Part shown: positions 1,165 to 51,036 of the stretch, in pieces | Layout of the letters: each line of letters opens with the position of its first letter | How positions within the stretch are numbered: the first letter of the stretch is position 1 | Assembly (NCBI GenBank): GCA_035084275.1 | Contig: CM068747.1 | Location: 13,950,001 to 14,014,000 of the forward strand | Length of the DNA stretch: 64,000 nt | Reading direction: 5' to 3' | Origin: Hydrolagus colliei | Lineage: Eukaryota | The notes under the pieces: generated by a model | Databases searched by the model: none | Told to the model about the DNA's origin: nothing | Seen by the model: only the letters and a program-made list of their open reading frames with translations | Position numbers and translations under genes: made by a program

Positions 1165-1900
1165 CAGTAAAGCCCATTTATCCGTGACTCGATGAACCGG
1201 CACTCCGTATAACTGGCATGCCAAAAAAAGTCCCCATTCGATAAACCGGAACTTATCTGGAACAATAGCGGTGGAGCATTTGTAAATGCATAAATAATAA
1301 CAGATAATAACAAAATATTGTATTGGTACTTATTGTTAAAACTACTCTCTTGCGCTTCTCACCTTTATAGTAGATGCTGCGCTTGAAGCCATGATGCTGC
1401 GGTTGAGGTTTATCGTCCAGCAGTTCTTTATAAAATGGAGCACACCAAGCGGGTGAAAAAAACGGAGCATGATTTTAAAGCCATACTAGCGGTAAGCCGA
1501 TAACGCTAGCCGATAACTCACATTGTCGCGCAGGTGCAGTATTTCGGTTTGCAGCTAGTAGAGTCTAGGGTTATCGGCTTGCCGCTAGTAAGACTTTAAA
1601 GTCGTGCTGCTGTTTTTTTCACCCGCTTGGTGTCCTCCATTTTAAAAAGGATCGCTAGACTATAAACTTCAACCAGTAAAGGTGAGAGTAAAACTACTCA
1701 CAAGAGAGTAGTTTTAACAATAAGTACCAATATAATATTATGTTATTATGTTATTATTTAGTTTGATGTGTACGGTGTGTGTTAAAATAACTTAAATTTT
1801 TTGTGGTGGGTTTTTGGCCACGGGCCGCCCGAATATCCAGCAGGCGCTTTAACCGGCATTGGCCAGGTCCTGCGGGTGCCGTATAAACGGGCTTTTACTG
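1165..1900. mobile_element. pogo/Tigger-type MITE, palindromic form, copy 1 (inserted in a SINE)
   Basis: TIRs CAGTAAAGCCCATTTAT / ATAAACGGGCTTTTACTG, TA on both sides. Internal inverted arms about 1295-1509 and 1564-1757. Confidence 0.9.
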
Positions 1901-3549
1901 TACTAGGTAAACAGAGGGGTGTGAAGTACGGAAACTTGTCTGAGGTTCTGTCCTGCCCAAGAATCAAACCCAGGTCCTCTCGCTTGTGAGGAGAGTGCTC
2001 TAAACCAATACTTTCCATTATGAATCGTTGCAAATTTCAGCCATAACTAGGTCATGGTTTAACTTCACTGGCTATTTTATAGCTGTTTAGGTACTGGCGT
2101 TTTGAACACCTGAAAATAAATCCACTGCGGATTTTCCTATATACAGGAAAAAGAGGTGGGAGATTGGCAATTCAAATGCTACCAGGTGTATAATTGTGAG
2201 CAGATATTAAATATAAATCCTGAGAGATCATATTTAGTTTGTACTGTTTGAAGTCAATGTGACTGTGAAGGGTTCTTTAATGCAAATGAGGTTGTGGATA
2301 AAAACTGTTCTATTGTTCAGTGGCACAATGCAAAATGCATGAATAAGACAGCAATAAGGAGATTATGTGACCTTTCTGAAAGGCCAGCATACGAGCACTA
2401 TCCTGATAAAATCATCTTAAACTTTGGTACTGAAATACAAACATGTGAACCCATTCCAAGCTGGTCAACTGAATGAATATTCGCTGAAGTAAACCACCAT
2501 ATTATTTACATTTCCACCCATGAGGTGGGTCACAAATTGACTAGAAATGAAATGAAATCAATCGCGATGATACAAGTGAACTTCACAGTGTGCAGAATGG
2601 TCACTTGTGGGAGGAATTCAGAACTCCAGTTTCACAACAGGCTCTATTCCTCGCTGGGATTTCCACGTGTAGACGGGAAACATGGAATTCTCACTTTGGT
2701 TTGCTCACTCTCACTCTTAAGCACTGTGATGAGTTTCTAAATGTGTCAGACATCCAACAGAGGAATAAAACAGAGCTTGATGTCCCCTTTGTTCAATTGT
2801 TGGCAAAAATGGTAAAGAAAGTAAGTAGATGGAGCAGTTGCAATGCAATCACATTAAATATTACAGGGTGATCAGAAAGTCATGATATCTATACTATTAT
2901 CCCAAAAAAATCAGCATTTTGTTAAGACTTGTTGGACATTGTAATGGCATCACAACTTTTTAGTCATCCTATATACAGTATAATATTAAAAAGTATTGTA
3001 TTGGTATTAGTTTTACATAAAAACTGGAATAAACTCTGGACTATATTTGTAGCGTTACAACAACACAACACACTGGTAGATTAAGTTTCTTCACATTTTA
3101 GAATGCACGTAAACTGGTAATCTCATTTGCACTGGATTGGTCACCGAGTACTGGCTGTGCTTTATTGAAATCAAAGCATTTACACAATGTGTACATAATT
3201 TTTTTTAAAAACGTGAAAGTTAGTGCTCTTGATGGCAACGGAGTTCAGTTGATTTCACCTCCTAGTTAAGCAGCCATCACTGGCAACAATGGAGATAATG
3301 ATTTTGCATTCAGTGGTATACAGAACATTTGCATATTTATACAGAAATTCGTATAAACTGCAGACCATATTGGTGGTGTAACAGCAACATAACAAATTAA
3401 GTTGCTTCACATTTGGAATGCATAAACCTACAATCTCATTTGTACTGGATAGGTTACAAAGTGACAGTTTGAGGCAAAGTGCCAAATTAAAACTGGTCAG
3501 TTAATCAAAATGCAAAGCTAAAATAATAATAATACTTCCATTTGATATA

Positions 3550-4288
3550 CAGTACAAGCCCGTTTATCCGGCACCTGCGGGACCTGGCCAATGCCGGTTA
3601 AAGCGACTACCGGATATTCGGGCGGCCCGAGGCCGAAAAACCACTACAAAAAAATTAAACTTCTTTTAACACACACCATACATACCAGACTATATAATAA
3701 CAGATAATAACAGAATATTGTATTGGTACTTATTGTTAAAACTACTCTCTTGTGCTTCTCACCTTGACTGATTGAGGTTTACAGTCCAGCGATTCTTTTT
3801 TAAATGGAGGACGCCAAGAGGGTGAAACAAATGGCAGCGTTATTTTAAAGTTGTGCGACTTTACTAGCTGCAAGCCTATAGCCCAGACTCTACAAGTGGC
3901 AAACCAAAATACAGCACCTGCGAGACAATGTGGGTTATCGGCTAGAGATGTCGATTTGCCGCTAGTATGGTTTTAAAATCATGCTCCGTTTTTTTCACCC
4001 GCTTGGCGTGCTCCATTTTAAAAGGAATTGCTGGACTATAAACCTCAACCGTAGCATCATGGCTTCAAGCGCAGCATCTACTAGTAAAGGTGAGAAGCGC
4101 AAACGAGTAGTTTTAACAATAAGCACCAATACAATATTCTGTTATTATGTTATTATTTATGCATTTACAAATGCTCCATTGCTTTTGTTCCAGATAAGTT
4201 CCGGTTTATTGAACGGGGACTTTTTTTTGGTGTGCCGGTTATATGAAAGTGTCAGTTCATCGAGTAACGGATAAACGGACTGTTACTG
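3550..4288. mobile_element. pogo/Tigger-type MITE, palindromic form, copy 2 (opposite orientation, inserted in a SINE tail)
   Basis: TIRs CAGTACAAGCCCGTTTATCC / GGATAAACGGACTGTTACTG, TA TSD. Reverse complement of copy 1. Transposase start MASSAASTSKGEKRKRVVLTIS at 4059-4124. Confidence 0.9.
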
Positions 4289-5540
4289 TACCATCTTATC
4301 ATGTCATTGATACATCTCAGATCTTCACAGAAGACCAGTTTATTGTAAAGTGAATTGACTGTATATTTTGTTGGCGATATGCAGCAACCAATTGCACTTG
4401 TGGATTGAGGGACCACATTTTTTTGAAGGGATTATTATCCCCTTAAAATAGGTCCCGCGATAGTTCATAAAAAGGACACAGAAATTCTACATGGTACGTT
4501 ACTACATCACAATTACTGTGCTGAGCATGAAATGGAATAAAAAATTCTAAGAGAGCCTATTCCACCACTTGTCACACCAGACCAATATTGTAAGATATGA
4601 TCCTTTTCATATTTTCTAAAACATTAGTGGTCTACTTTTCATTAAAAAAAAAGTTTGACTTTTAAAGAGAAAATACATCAGGAAATTTCCCTATCCTATT
4701 GCAAAATATAAGTGCAATTCTCACTGCTTAAAACTTTTTTAAAAAGACAGATTCGTACATTCAGTACTCATTAGTGTAATTCATTTAGTGTAAAAGATTG
4801 AAGAGAGTTAGCTCATGAATTTGACCTGTTGTTTCTGGGAGAAAATAAAAGAGTCGGAGAAAAGCGTAATGTGGTGTAAATGGTGTAAAAAGAGAGTTCC
4901 CTTAGTGTAATGTTATTTGCCAACAGGTCCCACTGTGTTCTGACAGGTTTTGTATGTTTTCTCCTTTGACATTCAACACTATAACTCTCCCCGAACAATT
5001 GTACATTCTTCCTCTGTAGTGTATCAATAATTCTTTCTGTAGCTATTCCAACTGTATTAAAACCTACTTTAAAACATATGTGCAAGTTATTGTTGTTTAT
5101 CAGTCACTTTTTGGCCCCTCCTACCCCCATCCCCACTTCCTACAGCAACCATTTTGCATGTTATAAGATCCATTTTAAACTTTTACTTTTCGTTGGCATA
5201 AAATGTGCTTTGCAGGCCTGATGATTAAATTGGAAGCTACAGCATACAGGAAGTTTCCATTGAATTTGAATAACTCTATGTAAAGTTGCAAAACCTCAGG
5301 CAACAGCGTGGAGAATGTTTCACAGGCAGGTGTGTGATGTGGGAAGTGTTACCATAAATCGAATTGGTTCAGAAAATTAGATATTTGCAACTTCTCCATA
5401 TTCCACTCAATAGTTATGAACAATAGGAAAACTACTGTAGAACAGGTAAACATGCACACAACATGCCCGGATGAATTCGTAGATACATGTCCTGCACAGT
5501 GCAGCAACCTGAGCCACAGCCACTGAAAACATTCCTGCTC

Positions 5541-6175: not shown

Positions 6176-6511
6176 GGAACAGTATTTGACTGGACCTTGG
6201 TTCAATGTTTCATCTGGATGACAGTACCTCTGGCAATGCAACACTCCCTAATCAAGAGATGAGAGTGCTGCCAACTGAGTCAGCTGCCAGCATAGTGCTT
6301 CTCTGCGCGTTATTTTGCATTTTAAACCCGAAAAATTTACATTTGGAGCGTGGCTCTCACAAAATCAAACTTGCATTGAAAGTTCACTCCTTTTGTAGAC
6401 TGCTGCCTTGTTACATCAGAGTGGGGAAATGGAAAAATCCCCCCACAAACACCCCCTCGAATACAAGCAATATGATATATGAACTTATTTATGTGGCAAA
6501 TAACAACTTAC

Positions 6512-7510
6512 CGAGAAGGCTAGTTCCCAGCAATGGGTTAAGGAGGTGTGGCACCACAGAGTTGTTGAGTTTAGTTGGTCCCGTTGTATTCCCAGCAGCT
6601 GAAATGGGCAGCAGGGATTCCGCCATTGACACAACTGCTGTCCCACCAAGAGTTGAGACAGCAAGTGTTGCCACTGCTGATGTAGTGGTAGTGTTGGTAG
6701 TGGTTGCCTGGGATGAGGTCACTCGAGAAACCTCACGATGATTAGCAGCACTGTCGGAGGGGGAGTGCAGAACACTCCTCAAAAGCTGGGGATTCAAGGC
6801 CATCAGTCCGGGGGGTGCTGGGAGGGTGAGCGAGTGTACTGTAGTGTCATTGCCTGAAAGACGCGGTAAGGGATTCTCCAGAGAGTTGGTCAGGAGGGTT
6901 TCTGCTCTGTGGCTAACGGACTGATTGCTGTGCAGATAATCTGGCAAGGATTGGATTTGTGTCACTGAGGGTGAAGGGTTTCTTTGCTGTTGTAATAGTT
7001 CGGGGAGAGTTAGATTTAAGGATGTCAGTGGGAGCATGGTTGTTTGGGCCTGGTTTTGAAACAACGCTGCCAAAAGTTGAACAGGTTGTAGAGGCTGCCC
7101 GTCCATATCGCTGGGTAGCAAAGTCAAAGCTGCGTTTAGATTTGGGTTCAAAATTCCCAAAGGGTTGACTGAGACCTCTGCCTTTCCATCTCCTGACGCA
7201 GACAACATATTCAGCATATTGTGGTTCAGGAGTTGCTGCTGGTTCATTGCTAAAGGGATGGACAGAGAGCTGAGAAGGTTTGGGTTCGGAGGGTAAGTGA
7301 GATTGTTACTCGTAGGGACGGTGTGTCCAAACTGAAACGTTTGGTCCTGACCGACGAAAGGAAGAGCACTCCCCATGGGAAGCTGAGCGCGTAATGCATT
7401 TCCAGCCGCTGTTGTAACTATAACTCCATCTTGCAGAAGGGATGTTGTCTTGGTAATGGCGGGTTGATTGGTGCCGGCAACGGCCATGGAAGTTGACTGC
7501 CCAGAACCAC
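6512..7510 (-). CDS. MBD5: MBD5 coding exon 5 (long form); gene continues beyond the left edge
   Basis: Acceptor gggtttcag, donor gtaagt. 999 nt, phase 1-1, GGSGQSTSMAVAGTNQPAITKTTSLLQDGVIVTTAAGN...VSTLGGTAVVSMAE...LLNPLLGTSLL, matching the recalled long MBD5 isoform. No following exon was found in 1-6511. Confidence 0.95.
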
Positions 7511-7939
7511 CTGAAACCCACACCATACAAATAGACATGTTAATGATGAGTAAAAGATCTTAAGCCTCTATGTTAACACACACCTGCTTTATATTAATAA
7601 TTCAGTGCAGGAACCGATGCATTGGCCAAATAAAAATGTGTTCAGTTATTCCAAATGTAAAGCTAAAATAATAATACCTGCATTGGATATAACGCTTCAT
7701 CACGTCTTTGAGATGTCTCAAAGCACTTCACAGAATATCCTGTAGAGTGAATTGACGGGGTATTTTGTCGGCGAAATGCAACAGCCGATTCTGATATCTT
7801 AACTAAGTAGATATCGTTAATGTTCCACAAACATCATGGATTGAATGACCAAATTAAATGACACCCTGATGCAGGCTATTCAGGCAATGTATTCTACATT
7901 TTCAGTCATCCACGTGGGGAAACGTTTTCAGATTTAATA

Positions 7940-8246
7940 ATAATTATGCATGCATTTGATATAGCGCTTTTCACATCTTCTAAACGTCTCAAAGCACTTC
8001 ACAGAATAAACTGTAAAATGAATTGACTGTATATTTGTGGGCGAAACGCGGCAGCCAATTGCGCACAGCAGTGTCCCACAAACTGTCGTGGATTGAAATG
8101 ACCAATTTTTATTATTGTGTTTTTTTGAGGGATTATTAATAGGCGTGTGGAGTAAGGAAACTTACCCAAGGTTTCGCCCTGACCCGCCTGGATTTGAACA
8201 CAGGTCTCACACTTGTAAAGCGAGTACTCTAACTACTAAGCTACCA
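7940..8246 (-). mobile_element. tRNA-derived SINE, short subfamily
   Basis: A/B-box head (GTAGCTTAGTAGTTAGAGT...GTTCAAATCC), family body, and L2-like tail ending in AT-rich repeats. Confidence 0.85.
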
Positions 8247-10399
8247 GTATGAAAGTTGGTAGAGTTCGGTTTTTATCTCCCTGCAGTCAAACATACAATA
8301 TATACCACAAAGATTTTACACACACACAAGCTGATTTTGTTTGCAAAGGATAGCCCCACTTGTAATCTGGATACCAAATACTATATAGATTGGTGTTTGC
8401 TAATTGAACATCATTTACTATTGAATTGATGTTTTAAGATGTTTTTAATTCGATTTTAAGATCAATTATGTAAGAAAATGTAAGTGTTTACATCGACTAA
8501 AAAATGAAGTTGTAGCAGACAGTACTTTGGTTATACAGTAGTATTAATGAGTAGACAGATCCCTGTTCTGAAGACATTTCAACTCAGGTTCCTTTTGCTG
8601 GTGTTAATCGTTCTTTGATATCTTAACTAAGTAGATTTCGTTAATGTGCAAACCTTGAAAGGAAAAAGGTGTTCTGCAGGAGAGGGAGGGTCAACCACAA
8701 TGTTGTCCTCTCCCTGGCATCTACAGGATCAATCAGGTCCTTACTCAAGAGTTATTAAATTTATTGTGGTTGTAATTAAAAAAAGACAACATTCATAGAG
8801 TGTGCAGTTTTCATGTTTGAACGTTTTGTCACCAAGTTGATAAGTGTAACGTTTGAACATCTTGTATAGACCGTATAGTAAGGATTTTGATTCACGTTGT
8901 ATGTATAACCATCTCTAGCAGCAGTCACGAGACACCAATCAAGAACAGAATCTCCAGCTAAGGTGCTGAGGTCAATTGTAGCACCCAAAGAGTTGTCCAA
9001 CTGAGATCAGATTTCTTAACACTGAGCAGAGATCATATGCTTGGGACCATCCTAATTTTTAGGGCTGAGCTGGAATAGATTCTACGAACTATCAGAGAAG
9101 CGCAGACTTTTTAAAAAAATATCAATTACATAATTTAAATCTATAAATTAATTAATTTAATTAACAAACTGGTTGAATTTCATATGTTGCATAAGACCAC
9201 GGATGTTGACTGTTGCCAAAACAATGCAACTAACGTAGAATTTCAATAGCTTGCATTTATTTAGCATCTTTCATGTTGAATGGATATCTCTAAGCACTAA
9301 TGTACCGAACATCAAGGAGATTGATTCAAAACAAAATCAAAAGGATGTGTTTTCAACAGGATAGTGAAGGCAAGGGAGGGTCAGAAATCGAGGAAGAGGT
9401 CATGAAGGCTCATCTGGCAATGTTGAGACAGAGATAGGGAGGACCAAACCACAATTGGAAGAGTGGAGGGTAATGGACAGGATTATAATGCTGGATTAGA
9501 CTACTACACCTGTAGGGTAACTGAAGATTTGAAAATCAGGGCTTTTGAATGAGTTGGAATTTGCAGAGTGATTATTGATTGATTTGAGTTGGAATTTCCC
9601 CATTAAATTTCCAAATACAACTGAGAATGTTCCCACCGAAAGTCCCAAACACTCAACTGTAGCCATGTTATTACTTCCAAATGATATATATTTTATTTTA
9701 AAAAATTCTGCAAATAATTTCAAATTCAGTTAAAATGAGAGACAGAAAAAAATCAACCAGCTTTCTTTATAATGCTCACGTTCAACATTTAACAAAATAT
9801 ATAATTGAGCACCAAGCAATAATGCAACAGCTAGTAGGACTGTAATGCATAAAGGAGGACAGGCTGGTCAGTCCAAAGCTTTCAAATGCCTTGCCTAGCC
9901 TTAATTGTCTAGTACATTACAGGGACCATCCATCATTCAAATTTATGTGCCATTGAGTAGCAATGATTTTTCTTTCCAGTGGTTTATGCTCTGCTTACGT
10001 GGCCTTCTGTGCCAAGTGAGCTCAGAGGTTTTACTGGGAGGAGAATCATGCAGCATGGATGTTTGTTAAATATATTTTTTTAAAAAACACATTCAGACTT
10101 TTGGGACTTTTCCCAGGGGTCTTCAACAGATAATCTACACACAGGGCTTTTGATCTTTCAGGCCAAGCTGTTGACACTAACAGTTACAAATCTTGCATCC
10201 TGTTCAAAGCATGGCTTACATCACCGTAGCTTACAAAGCCATCCTCTGCACTTGGGAAAGGCTGAGCCGGGTGCAGTGTGACACTGCATGATTGCTCCAA
10301 ATTACTTTGTTTGCTTCATGTGTTAATTTACGAAGAAGCACATCGAGCGTAAATGGCACATGTTTATATGTACTGTACACTTAAGCACAAAGCCAGCTA

Positions 10400-14473: not shown

Positions 14474-15205
14474 CAGTAGAAGCCCGTTTATCCGTGACTC
14501 GATGAACCGGCAATTCCGTATAACTCGCACGCCAAAAAACAAGTCCCCATTCGATAAACCGGAACTTATCCGGAGCAATAGCAGTGGAGCATTTGTAAAT
14601 GCATAAATAATAACAGAATATTGTATTGGTACTTATTGTTAAAACTACTTTTTTGTGCTTTTTACCTTTGCTGGTAGATGCTGCACTTGAAGCCATGATG
14701 CTGTGATTGAGGTTTATAGTCCAGCAATTGTTTTAAGATGGAGCACGCCAAGCGGATGAAAAAAACGGAGCACAATTTTAAAGCCAAACTAGCGGCAAAC
14801 CGACATCGCTAGCCGATAACCCACATTGTCGCGCAGGTGCTGTATTTCGGTTTGCCGTTAGTAGAGTCTAGGGCAATAGGCTTGCAGCTAGTAAAGTCAC
14901 GCGACTTTAAAATCACGCTGCCGTTTTTTTCATCTGCTTGGCGTCCTCCATTTAAAAAAGAATCGCTGGACTGTAAACCTAAATCAGTAAAGGTGAGAAG
15001 CGCAAGAGAGTAATTTTAACAATAAGTACCAATACAATATTCTGTTATTATCTGTTATTATTTAGTCTGGTGTGTACGGTGTGTGTTAAAATAAGTTAAT
15101 TTTTTTTGTAGTGGGTTTTCGGCTGCGGGCCGCCCGAATATCCGGCAGGCGCTTTAACCGGCATTGGCCATGTCCCGCGGGTGCCGGATAAACAAGCTTT
15201 TACTG
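14474..15205. mobile_element. pogo/Tigger-type MITE, palindromic form, copy 3
   Basis: TIRs CAGTAGAAGCCCGTTTATCC / GGATAAACAAGCTTTTACTG; right flank TA, left flank CA. Colinear with copy 1. Confidence 0.9.
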
Positions 15206-15281: not shown

Positions 15282-15591
15282 GGAGTCCTGTTGCTCAGTG
15301 GTTGGAGCACTTGCCTTACAAGTGAGAGACCTGGGTTTGATTCCAGGCAGGACGAAACTTTGGGCAAGTTTTCTTACTGCACCCGCCTAATAATAATCTG
15401 TCCAAAAAAACAACAATAAATTGATCACTTCAATCTACGACTGGTTGTTGGACACTGCTGTGTTCAATTGGCTGCTGTGTTTCGCCCACATATGTACAGT
15501 CAATTCACTTTACAGTATATTCTGTGAAGAGCTTTGAGATGTCTAGAAGACGTGAAAAGTGCTATATCAAATGCAAAGATTATTATTATTA
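15282..15591 (+). mobile_element. tRNA-derived SINE, short subfamily
   Basis: GGAGTCCTG head through GCTATATCAAATGCAAAGATTATTATT tail. Confidence 0.85.
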
Positions 15592-16450
15592 TATTCATTT
15601 TTTAAAAAAACTTTACCTAAAAGGGAGAATCAGACATCCCATGTATAGTCAGATCCAGAGTCAACTTTCTCCAACCTGCAATATTTGCTTTAAAGCTTAA
15701 CCTCCAAATTATCCCACTTGATAGCAACAGTGTGATCACCCTACCCCACCCCTACTTTCTATTCCAGCATTTCGTGCAATGCTCCTGTATAAAATGTGTC
15801 AAAGTTAGACAATTGTGTGCTGTGAATCCATGCATGTTCTCACTTGCTCCTGAAAATCTTTGGCGATTGTCCTTACTCAGTTAGTCCAGATTTCTGAACT
15901 TAAGAATGTAAGAACATAAGAATTGGTGAAAGAAGACCAAGGTGCACCCAGTTTGCGTTTCACCACTCAAGCAGTTGCATGACATGACGTGTCCCAACTG
16001 TATCCCGAGATCATTATTTCCCAACAAAAATTGATTTAATTTGCCTTTTGAAAGAATCGAACAAAAGAATCTTCAATCACATCATTCAAAGGGGGAATTC
16101 AAACTTTGGCCCAATCTTGAATGCATAAGTTTAGTAACTTAAACCAAATGTGTTTGTTCAGGTGAAACATATTTAGGAAACTAACAGAAATTGTCTGAAA
16201 GAGATATGAAAGGGACGATAAAAGGATGAATTCTTCCTACGAAATTAAACTAAAACACTCAACCATTGAAACCCTTTCAAGATTGGCTGAATCACAGAAG
16301 TTTAGTCAACAACATCTATAAGTTTATGAATAGCCTGGGCCACGTATGCTGTATCTGGAGGTTGAACATTTAAAAAAAAACTATGGTGGTAGGATTTATC
16401 TGGTAGGGGAGGAAGAAGATGGGTCCTGTTCCTAAACAGCTGAAGCATAC

Positions 16451-16522: not shown

Positions 16523-17876
16523 CTGACAGAAGATAGCGTGAAGGTAAGGCAAGAAAATAGGGGAAAGACGTTACAAAGCAAAGAGCACAGACACACAGGA
16601 AAATATTGTTCAATAATTCAGCCACAGAGAGAATGTTACATTTCCTATCCGTTTACCATGTAATTAATTAAACAAACCAAGCAAGTTTTTAAATAAAGTG
16701 CAAATTTCTCAAATCCTTTTCTCCCTGCCCCGCCACCATTGGTACAACTATTTTTCACAAGTCTTAGGCTGCAAAAGCAGTAACTACTGTAATATGCAGT
16801 CTTCTCTATAGTTTCACTATGTTGTTTCTTCTAGCATTACTTCTTAACCAGCCTGTGAATGTCAAAAAATATCCAATAACATTTTGTCTTAATCTAAAAT
16901 GCAGTTTTCTTTAGCCTCAAATTCTGCTATTTAATCTACAAAACAAAGTTGCCACAATAAGGCTTATAAAGTGGACTTCCCAACACAAAAACTCATGGCT
17001 TACATTACTAAACTAAGCATGTTTAGCATTTTAGTTTGATAATTACGGTATGTATTTTTGAACCAGATGGAATTCCTGTTCAAATTTTACATTTCCTCCA
17101 AGTTTTGGAAAAACCACTTGATTCGAATTGTCAATTGTAGGATGTAAACATGTTTTACGATTATATTTAAATAGATGCATCATCCCAGACAAATTCTTTC
17201 ACTTGAATGTCGTGCTGTACTTCCTTTTGCAGTGTGAAGGTTTATAGAATTTATGCAAAATATAACTTCCTAAGTAAAAACATTTTTGTTCAATATTGCA
17301 ATAAAATTAAATGTGCATTTACATCTATAGATTATTCACTTCTGCTTTATCTCTTTAAGAGATATCCCTCCATGGGTTCATATACTTTTTTAAACATTGG
17401 GTTCTGTTACAGTACTTATTGTTTATTGCATTAGCGTTAATCGGGGTATGAAAACTCAAAGATGAGAATATTTGACACACTCCTTTCCAAAAACTGGATA
17501 GAAAACATGCTGTAAAAATAAATATTGTATCAAAATCACAAGATTAAAAGGACTGGAGTACCAGAACAAATATATACTTAAATTTGCATGGGAAATATTT
17601 TTCAACTAAAATATATTGCAACCTAGACTACACCAAAATACAACTTGGCGAAATGGACTGGTTTCTGGAACCACAAAGTTACAACAGAACAAAAAAAACT
17701 CAACCAATACTGAACAAAAATGAAAGATTACGGGAACATTATGCATCATAACACTGGAGCAAAAAGAAACACCCCACATACATTTGCCTTATTTTCCAAA
17801 GGAACAAAATGTACTTTCTACACAAGTTTTAATACAATAAAAGATCAACAATTAGTACATTAGTGTAAAACCATAC

Positions 17877-19976
17877 CTGCTTCAGTACTGGTTTGGCTGC
17901 GAATGCTGCCACTGCTATTTGGTACCATTACTGCTGAAGATGTTGTAATCCTTGAATGAGATGGGTTGGAATGCAAGCTATTCCCCAAAGTCAGTGCAGA
18001 CTGGTGGAGCAGCCCACAACTGCCACTAGTTTGTAGCTGTCCCACTAACTCAACAAATTGACTGTTTGGGCCCTGGCAATTCTGGATTAAATTAGTGCTT
18101 GTATTTTGGCAAGAAATACCGTCCCCTCGGGTTAACGTTTGAACTGACAGGTTGTGAACGGAACCTGACTTCAAATTGGTGTCTGCAAAGTTAAGTTGGT
18201 TGGAGGAACAAGGAATACCTGTTGGGGAATTACCGCAACCAGTACTATTGCCACTGATTTGGGAACTCTGTGAACTCATGGATTGAAGTAACTGAGACAT
18301 GGTGTTATTCATGGTTAAGGATGAACTTTGTCCTTGCTTTCTTAAAGGGTCAGGTACAGGCTTTGGAATACCTGAGCTGCCCATCTGAGACTGTTTAAGC
18401 ATACTCAATACTGTTGGGGTCGCTTGCTTCCTTTTCCGTAAAGGGTCCTTTTGCTGTGCCATTAGCTTATCTCTCAATGCTGCCCGTCCACTCTGACCTT
18501 CATTAATTGACAGAAGCATGTTGGCAGTTGGAGGAAACATAGTATTTAAAGTGCTGTGTCCTTCACTATTGCCACCACTGCCAACTCCACCACCATTGTT
18601 GCTACCAGTCAGTTTATTTTGATTAGCTAGCTGTGCTTTGGCTGCTGCTGAAAGTAAACTGCTTGCTGGAAATGAAGCAGCATTATGCTGATTTAAAATC
18701 TGATTCAAGGGCATTCCCAGCAAACCTGGCGGACTCTTTTGTTGTTGTACATTTCCAACGGATACAGATGGAAACAAAGGATTATTTTGAGGATTCAAAA
18801 CATTACTCATTCCGACCAGCAATGGATTAGGGTTATCTTTGTATTGATGAAGAAGCCCATCGGGCTTGTTAGATGGACTCGATGGCATGGATGGTCGTGG
18901 AGAACCCATAGATGACCTTGGTGACCTTGGAGGGACCTTCATTCCACCGCAGCCTGACTGGGGACCTGCAGGGGGCATCATTAAGTTTCCGTGATCAGAC
19001 GATGTGGAAGATGACCTTGACCTCTGTGGGGAGACCTCGATTCTCCCAACGACAGGTCCCATCATGTGCACAGGGGAACTAACTGGAGTTGGAGATACAG
19101 ATGTGGAACTTGAATGCTGAACCCTTGGAATATGGGTTCCATGGCTAACAGGGCCAGGCTTGACTGTTGGCAATGGTAGATTGCTTGGCAATGGGACAAC
19201 AGCAGGAGGCATGCTTACATTCATCATAGGTACCTGAGAGTGCATGGTTGTCTGGAAATTCGATGCGTTCATAAATACCGGGTTTGTTTTGTTGGGGATG
19301 GGGTCAAGAATACCTAGTGGATCCTTCTCCGATGGCAATGGCTTTTTCTGGAGAGCACATGATGCTGGGGGTCCTTGGGAAAGTTTGTGAAACATAATTC
19401 GTGGCATATCCATGTTTGACGAATAGTTACAAGATGGTTTCTTCATGATGGGACTCTTGGTAGTCATGGTTGGTGAAAGTGGTATGGAAGTCCTTCCAGC
19501 CATAGCACAGGATGACTGGGCTGAAGAATTCTGCATCAGGACTGTGGGTGGGGAAAGGGGAATTCGATTTATGTGGATGGGGCTGGAGTTTGGCCCAGTA
19601 TGAAAGCCAGGGTTATTCCTTGTAAACACATCTGGACTTCCCATTGTATCGGTCCTGGGAGATATAGAACCATCTCCATAGATCTGAGATCCTGGACTAG
19701 ATAGACCAGCGTGATTTCCACGATACGGAGACTTCTGCCCATGGTCACTGCTACCCAGTCTCTGTCTAGAATAACCAGTATGCAGCTCTTGCTGGGGACT
19801 TGCACACAGCTCCTGTTGGTAAAGCCGAACCATAGCATTCGGGCCTCCCATCATTAACTTAGGCAAATATGGATTCTTGTTATAGTCTGGCACTGCAGAA
19901 TTCGGCACCACTTCTTGCAATTTATTCCTCATTGCTCTTGGAGTTGCTGCTCGTGACTGTACCATTGGAGTTCCGC
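17877..19976 (-). CDS. MBD5: MBD5 large coding exon 4 (Pro/Ser-rich region)
   Basis: Acceptor ttttctttttctag, donor gtatgg. 2100 nt open frame (ORF track 17860..20007) with MBD5 motifs [71 protein letters not shown] and [10 protein letters not shown]. Phase 1-1. Confidence 0.98.
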
Positions 19977-20032
19977 CTAGAAAAAGAAAACAGTAAATGA
20001 ATACCAACTGTACCTGGAATCACAGCTGGCTT

Positions 20033-34394: not shown

Positions 34395-35433
34395 CAGTGG
34401 CTTCCAAACTCTAAATAGCGGCATGCCCTCCACCCTAACTCAGCAAAGTTTATGTTGCACCCCCACTTCCCCTCCTTCACATTGCATTATTTTCACAGAT
34501 AACAGCAAATTCAATATTTTCTTCACCTGTTTTTAATCAGTTTTAAAATTTTTTTATCAAAAAACATTAAATTGTTAAAAAATTTAATGAAATGAAAAAA
34601 ATTAATAAAGTTGTGAAACCCATTACAGTAAAAGCCCATTTATCTGTGACTTGACCAACCGGAACATCCGTATAAAGAAGTCCCCATCCGATTAACTGGA
34701 TGTTATCCTGCACAATTGCGGTGGCGCATTTAATGAATCTATTGTTGCCTGAGAGTACTGTACAGGTATTTGGGTTTTCTCCTGGTAGAGCCTTAATGTT
34801 GCGCTGCCGGTTTTTTCCCTTGTGTAGCGTCCGCCATTGCAGAAGTTATCGATAGACTGTACACCTCTACCCCAGCATCATGGCTTCAAACTAAGCATCT
34901 ACCAGCAAAGGTGATTTTTAGATGAATAACAAAGGTCTGTTATTATCTGTTATGATTTAGTCTATTATTAATATGGTACGTGTTAAAATAAGTTATTTTT
35001 TGTATTGGGTTTTTGGCATCGGATCCGACTGAATATCCGGCCTGCCGTTTAACTGGCATTGGACAGCTCCTGAGTGTGCAGATAAACGGGATTTTACTGT
35101 ACTTACATTTACAATTTACAACATTTAGAATTTGTTAGTGTGATGTGTGAGCTTGCTTTTTTGCGCAATGTTTCTTCCTGACTGCCTGCCCGGCTCACTC
35201 ACTCGTTGTTGGTTTCACTCGCTGCCGGCTTGCCTCGCTCTCTTGCTGCTGGCCTGGCTCACTCCCAGATCATAGCACCGTTGCGCCCCCTTTCCACTGG
35301 CGAACTACGTATTAACGAACATCGCAACGTTAAGCAGGATTTACTTGTAATAAGAACAATAACGGCCGCCCCCACCCCACCCAACAGTACACGCCCCCCA
35401 AGGGAGGTGCGCCCCACAGTTTGGAAACCACTG
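34395..35433. mobile_element. hAT (Charlie-like) non-autonomous element
   Basis: 16-bp TIRs CAGTGGCTTCCAAACT / AGTTTGGAAACCACTG (15/16); 8-bp TSD ggctaggc / gtctaggc (7/8). Confidence 0.88.
34626..35099 (+). mobile_element. pogo/Tigger-type MITE, single-arm form, nested in a hAT MITE
   Basis: Same TIRs (CAGTAAAAGCCCATTTATC / GATAAACGGGATTTTACTG), TA TSD, one ATGGCTTCAA...AAAGGTGA remnant at 34880, no internal palindrome. Confidence 0.85.
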
Positions 35434-50649: not shown

Positions 50650-51036
50650 TTATATAATAATAATCATAGCATTTTATATAGCGCCACATTGAGTATTCGA
50701 GATGTCTCAAAGCTTCACAGAATATACTGTATGTTTTGACCGTATATTTTGTGGGAAAAACACAGCAGTCAATTACACACAGCAGTGTCCCACAAACAGT
50801 CTTAGATTGTGTGACCATTTTATTATTATTGGATTGAGTAATCATTTTTTTTAAAGGAATTGTTAGCCCCAGAAGACTGATCTGCCAAGCAACTAATAAC
50901 TGGGTTCCTACTTAATACTAGGTAAAACAAGAGGTGTGGAGAAAGGAAACTTGCCCAAAGTTTCGCCCTGCCAGGAATCAAATCCAGGTCTCTCACTTGT
51001 GAGGTAAGTGCTCTAACCACTGAGCTACAGGACTCC
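50650..51036 (-). mobile_element. tRNA-derived SINE, long subfamily
   Basis: Full-length family match. Confidence 0.85.

Follow-up and report, generated by a model that had tools for sequence, protein, structure and literature searches.

A 739-bp non-autonomous Tigger element carrying what is very probably a passenger remnant of a JRK-like transposase gene

The accessible part of Gao et al. (2020, PMC7386202) derives JRK from Tigger and gives JRK a DD32D/E catalytic spacing, with JRKL, TIGD2 and TIGD7 as DD34. DD32D is common in Tigger1-type elements too, as the available portion of its transposon table indicates, and this spacing alone is therefore not diagnostic. The same source lists JRK-like "pseudogenes" for cartilaginous fish, coelacanth and frogs (PMC7386202 Table S2) and leaves the turtle and crocodilian JRK rows blank. 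In the text available from the Codebook study (PMC13538051; likewise PMC11601254), JRK binding is enriched at Tigger15a, the Tigger15a consensus carries predicted JRK sites in its TIRs, and Tigger15a is the best tblastn match of JRK in Dfam. Tigger15a is also found among the human Tigger families in the accessible part of PMC5753468, and JRK is unmentioned in that of PMC7325037. A literature search combining jerky, Tigger and coelacanth, thin on subscription papers, yielded no prior report linking the three, and a review from this search says of Jerky only that it is pogo-derived.

Elements of the pogo type move by cut-and-paste, the transposase binding the TIRs via two HTH domains and inserting at TA. 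The stretch of Hydrolagus colliei DNA analyzed here (64,000 nt, referred to as the window) contains three copies of a Tigger derivative as well as a shorter relative, and each of the three copies holds the start of a transposase reading frame.

Structure and abundance of the 739-bp element

The features of copy 2, the best characterized member, and of its relatives in the window are as follows:

3550..4288, minus strand (parent sense = window minus): non-autonomous Tigger element, copy 2, 739 bp, flanked by a TA target site duplication at 3548-3549 and 4289-4290
3550..3739, minus strand: right (3') parent end with the 21-bp TIR (parent 2238-2425), from mapping onto the parent
3730..3931, minus strand: native arm with 5' leader and transposase start, from mapping onto the parent
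3942..4172, plus strand: inverted duplicate of about 230 bp, hairpin partner of the native arm
4059..4121, plus strand: first 21 transposase codons, from translation and mapping onto the parent
4167..4288, minus strand: left (5') parent end with TIR (parent 1-126), from mapping onto the parent
1165..1900, plus strand: copy 1, 85% identical to copy 2 and in opposite orientation, with its ATG arm frameshifted (16 aa)
14474..15205, plus strand: copy 3, 88.5% identical to copy 2 and in opposite orientation, with an ATG at 14696 on the minus strand
34626..35099, plus strand: 474-bp relative with the same termini, a different deletion and no inverted duplicate, from a TIR match

The inverted duplicate comprises leader, transposase start, deletion junction and about 60 bp of 3' sequence. 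In the native arm a deletion of about 34 nt took out the ATG, with GEKHKRVVLTI still readable ahead of the deletion junction. The ATG noted in the original prediction thus sits in the inverted duplicate and faces the left end of the element, a point absent from that prediction.

The TIR proposed there was recovered at seven places in the window at up to three mismatches, against 0.01 expected. It is 21 bp long, starts with CAG and is complementary between the two ends at 20/21 positions in the majority sequence of 31 copies; the ends of Tigger15a may resemble it. A search of the genome returned 5,595 first-look candidates, and all 40 that were scored were near full length at 87-100% identity. 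Closer examination of 31 copies (the thirty best-ranked loci plus copy 1 of the window) revealed a length of 732-748 bp in every one, with TA on both sides in 24, on the left in 28 and on the right in 27. Their divergence from the majority sequence was 5.4%, a value biased low in this sample of best matches. The exact 23-mer of TA plus TIR occurs 2,948 times in the genome, counting the ends of all derivatives of the element family and not those of the 739-bp element only, and its reversed control is absent. The designation as a MITE holds insofar as the parent ends are kept, the transposase is deleted and many copies share one length, but at about 740 bp the element is long for a strict MITE. 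It is a short, abundant DNA transposon that is likely dead. Further deletion derivatives of about 190-830 bp with the same termini were also observed, the 474-bp relative in the window among them.

Long open frames at 17863-20019 (minus strand, 719 aa) and 6492-7559 (minus strand, 356 aa) look like host-gene exons and may be MBD5-like. Searches for a host-gene name gave nothing in Pfam and only low-complexity leads under 0.9 in the Atlas, and the MBD-domain search returned no match near the window. Copy 3 is likely intronic, since it lies between these two frames. A SINE whose head derives from a tRNA is also very abundant in the window (e.g., 7933-8252, 15284-15594 and 50653-51036); it was recognized from nine Rfam tRNA matches and accounts for most of the large repeat families found there.

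Translation of the window at 4059-4124 (plus strand) reads MASSAASTSKGEKRKRVVLTIS, the peptide originally reported there, and copy 3 yields MASSAASTSKGKKHKKVVLTIS from 14696 (minus strand) as well as KGEKRKRVILTIS on the plus strand in its other arm, both matching the earlier reading. A six-frame scan located the transposase-start motif five times in the window: copies 2 and 3 have it in each arm, copy 1 in a single arm. The claim that the frame of copy 2 enters deletion-joined 3' sequence after VVLTI was likewise borne out: past the 21 codons it continues in non-transposase sequence to a total of 71 residues.

It is highly improbable that this micro-ORF is functional, be it as an expressed short basic peptide or through a hairpin giving rise to small RNAs that repress the transposase. 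Such a role would agree with the frame of 60-77 aa in most of the 31 copies that retain the ATG (absent in 4/31), with the folding of the arms as a long hairpin (z = -18 versus 20 shuffles), and with a pN/pS of 0.42 (p=1e-4) for the 21 codons when every copy is counted, which ranks within the bottom 5% among 158 control windows. However, open frames are expected at 5.4% divergence among 31 copies that are the best matches to copy 2, and the hairpin is the mechanical result of the inverted duplication, as any such duplication folds this way. The micro-ORF spans only the first 9 of the 53 positions of CENP-B_N, so its 21 codons cannot form the HTH domain, and its peptide gave no Pfam match for CENP-B_N. 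The copy-wise pN/pS signal arises from two common synonymous variants (8 and 13 copies), which contribute 21 of the 36 synonymous counts, and it is gone once each distinct variant is counted singly (12 synonymous and 28 non-synonymous, p=0.30), so that selection on the 21 codons is not supported. From the distribution of these substitutions we read the two shared variants as inherited sub-lineages and the 21 codons as passengers, a reading that would leave room for weak constraint.

Full-length parents and formation of the element

To locate the source of the element, the genome was searched with DDE_1, and blastn of the element was run on the 30 resulting loci. This revealed a TA-flanked parent copy of 2,425 bp (G000:C3:6140561-6142985). 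A second TA-flanked one of 2,394 bp was located on C13, and both are decayed by stops and frameshifts. Two stop-free frames on C22 (P0003 and P0004) belong to a sister subfamily. In read-through the decayed parents are 76% identical to P0003. Tree and termini alike divide the approximately one dozen long copies into two subfamilies. The ends of the element are 80-93% identical to those of the C3/C13 subfamily, versus 72-75% for the C22 subfamily.

Piecewise mapping at 80-95% identity accounts for the element in parent sense as left end 1-126, followed by 175-356 plus 2238-2295 in inverted orientation, next by 131-356 minus 286-319 (with loss of the ATG), and finally by the right end 2238-2425. 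Both arms carry the identical deletion junction, and the duplication would therefore have followed the deletion.

The 21 codons are thus very probably what is left of a Tigger (pogo) transposase gene, carried as a passenger in a 739-bp non-autonomous derivative of a 2.4-kb parent. As the structure of the element suggests, parent 357-2237 would first have been deleted at an imperfect microhomology, after which 175-356 plus 2238-2295 would have been duplicated by fold-back or template-switch and inserted at about 126-131, and the native arm would then have lost its ATG; the order of these three steps is taken from structure alone. The resulting element was likely amplified in trans into TA sites through cut-and-paste by the parent transposase, and its copies would have decayed neutrally since.

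Relationship of the transposase to JRK

Both C22 frames contain CENP-B_N, HTH_Tnp_Tc5 and DDE_1, the same Pfam domains as human JRK. The last two catalytic residues are spaced D-32-D in both parents as well as in the C22 frame; human JRK has D-32-E and JRKL has D-34-D. In its first 420 residues, P0003 shares 75% identity with the coelacanth protein, 71% with the turtle protein, 61% with human JRK (over 393 residues) and 42-43% with JRKL/TIGD2. Its best protein match is the coelacanth "jerky protein homolog" P0005 (68%, with 94% of the query covered). Coelacanth, turtle and alligator "jerky homologs" lead the database matches, followed by marsupial JRK, and TIGD7, TIGD5 and CENPBD1 are not named in the top 120 of the 900 matches, many of which are unnamed. 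A search of PDB returned CENP-B (1HLV, E=2e-5) as the sole match.

At the N-terminus, the human JRK start given in the original prediction is indeed that of the human protein (P0125), but the spacing from the Met is not the same as had been stated: KRKR begins at residue 13 of the element, compared to residue 14 for JRK of human, mouse and marsupials, and one gap is therefore needed to align the 21-mer with human JRK. The coelacanth and echidna proteins likewise have KRKR at residue 13, and alignment of the 21-mer with the turtle protein is free of gaps. Identity of the 21-mer amounts to 18/21 with the coelacanth transposase (no gap) and 16/21 with human JRK (one gap). Among 72 proteins scored, the coelacanth protein ranked first (82), followed by four turtle proteins (66-70), human and mouse JRK (65) and, at a distance, JRKL/TIGD2 (41-45), which places the N-terminal match above the generic pogo level.

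The resemblance can hardly be due just to the generic basic motif with which pogo/Tigger DNA-binding domains open. In line with such an origin, KRKRVVLT also opens JRKL and TIGD2, SSSKGEKRK is present in a spider/Logan Tigger, and for the first ten residues the match to human JRK does not exceed that of shuffles (P=0.33), so that the claimed N-terminal likeness stands for the whole 21-mer and fails for its first ten residues. The entire protein of the parent is nevertheless JRK-like, which refutes the generic explanation at the protein level and confines it to the extreme N-terminus. Rather, the likeness would arise because JRK retains an entire transposase N-terminus that comes from a member of the same DD32 Tigger group.

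Three trees were calculated (79 rows, quick; 46 rows, quick mixture; 34 rows, careful) from rows picked by hand out of about 290 proteins, with TIGD7, TIGD5 and CENPBD1 (as named rows) and Tigger15a missing, and with several mammalian rows of odd composition. All three agree in placing the element's transposase family as one clade (support 100) among JRK-like Tiggers and away from JRKL/TIGD2, and a union of the family with JRKL/TIGD2 was rejected (p=0.00035). Mammalian JRK is joined first by echidna and turtle (100/99) and next by coelacanth b, alligator and coelacanth a. A position of the family as sister to this coelacanth-reptile-mammal group is absent from the trees, but with p=0.117 it was not rejected.

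These trees bear on a direct source relationship, in which the family would be the sister of mammalian JRK and its TIR the ancestral target of JRK. The 61% identity, the identical GEKRKRVVLT and the DD32 spacing all fit it, as do the two HTH regions of one C22 copy (C22b, see below), with 33/55 and 41/60 identical residues versus human JRK and 25-26 and 26-29 versus JRKL/TIGD2. Even so, we regard it as very unlikely, given that the sister grouping proposed in the original prediction was rejected (AU p=1.4e-6), that the turtle (70%), coelacanth b (67%), alligator (66%) and coelacanth a (63%) sequences are nearer to human JRK, and that the best transposon match and bound target of JRK in the available Codebook text is Tigger15a (PMC13538051). 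The prediction that this genome hosted a mobile pogo family near JRK accordingly stands as far as the family is JRK-like, but the family is not JRK's sister. As placed by these comparisons, the full-length parent and JRK fall into one transposon group in which other sequences are nearer to JRK; the family is a cousin of the transposon that gave rise to JRK and not that transposon itself. The further idea that TIRs might point to the ancestral target of JRK-like proteins is already in print, the accessible Codebook text reporting JRK bound at Tigger15a with motif matches in the TIRs. With a TIGD7 matrix as a stand-in for that of JRK, the TIRs scored second and third in copy 2 (10.3 and 8.3), which is no evidence since neither reaches the 95th percentile (11.4) of the best scores obtained with shuffles.

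The tree is at odds with host phylogeny. Fifteen "jerky homolog" gene models of the coelacanth (P0005 and P0139-P0152) are 94-97% identical to each other and probably represent a recently active transposon annotated as genes. Together, these two observations suggest that the JRK-like lineage moved between hosts. A jerky-like protein was also detected in nine turtle species (P0006, P0009 and P0153-P0162), eight of which were compared and are 84-100% identical. The turtle protein is the sister of mammalian JRK, and no turtle JRK is listed in the accessible part of PMC7386202; a search for earlier reports of JRK in turtles, thin on subscription papers, found none. Fusions of a KRAB domain with a JRK-like transposase occur in softshell turtle and caecilian (P0013 and P0063), on different branches.

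Stop-free frames and comparison with known systems

The two stop-free DD32D frames on C22 (G000:C22:13995530-13997978, L012, and C22:14017524-14019750, L011) lie 22 kb apart and are 97.4% identical in the coding region and 84-89% in the flanks. One copy (C22a) keeps the right TIR and has a SINE near codon 6, while the other (C22b) has both TIRs, the ATG, an in-frame 18-nt deletion and an insertion behind its stop. Judged by this pattern, the coding likeness likely reflects gene conversion bounded by the SINE and the post-stop insertion. Neither frame has a stop or frameshift, compared to 4-6 expected from sister copies, and the chance of one intact copy surviving among 12 is 0.04-0.14. Selection on these frames finds no support in their dN/dS of 0.61-0.75, which lies within the range of the decayed copies (0.36-1.02 in 10 of 11 and 4.2 in the short eleventh). 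It is possible that the C22 frames are domesticated. The surrounding 60 kb (G000:C22:13980001-14040000) contain 18 TIR-like sites.

A broader proposal, that JRK's transposon group was tamed more than once, seems to us rather unlikely. If true, the C22 pair, kept similar by gene conversion, would be a recent and separate JRK-like gene surrounded by thousands of its putative binding sites, and the conserved turtle sister gene would push the domestication of JRK back before mammals.

Intact pogo-type frames of other clades were observed in tandem clusters at G000:C3:60794000-60813000 (L020, L024 and L025) and C38:4168000-4349000 (L029-L034), with 480-718 aa open and seven near-identical frames on C38; these are candidates for domesticated or amplified genes. 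An intact 582-aa pogo frame at G000:C2:110148900-110150450 (L026, P0175) has a best database match of only 45% and, in the tree, sits on a long branch towards the JRKL/TIGD2 side.

The significance of the locus is modest, as it is a real but ordinary transposon relic. A nearly intact natural transposase with matching ends from JRK's group nonetheless provides a useful outgroup for the change in JRK specificity on domestication, with coelacanth or turtle sequences as the better proxies for the JRK ancestor. The "JRK pseudogenes" of fish can in some cases be ordinary copies of a transposon. The accessible text of Gao et al. (2020, PMC7386202) treats such sequences as pseudogenes, whereas TIRs and TA flanks identify the copies in this genome as transposons.

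The element shares with the Tigger family (PMC7386202) and its derivatives such as Tigger7/MER44 (PMC5753468), as described in the available parts of these sources, the TA duplication, short TIRs starting with CAG, a parent of about 2.4 kb, the combination of CENP-B_N, HTH_Tnp_Tc5 and DDE_1, and high-copy internal-deletion derivatives. It differs from Tigger derivatives by its internal inverted duplication of about 230 bp with a second, reversed transposase start. The accessible transposon table of PMC7386202 holds four matches to the TIR core, including one sponge DD34D and one coelacanth ED34D element, and none of the four is a DD32D element.

The coelacanth "jerky protein homolog" cluster (P0005) resembles the family in its position as best match, its N-terminus, its DD32D spacing and its multiple copies, but occupies another host and a separate tree branch. 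Mammalian JRK has in common with the family the transposase group, the DD32 spacing, the GEKRKRVVLT start and 61% identity. In contrast to the dispersed and decayed transposon family of the element, whose N-terminus is one residue shorter and which is not its sister, JRK is a single conserved host gene.
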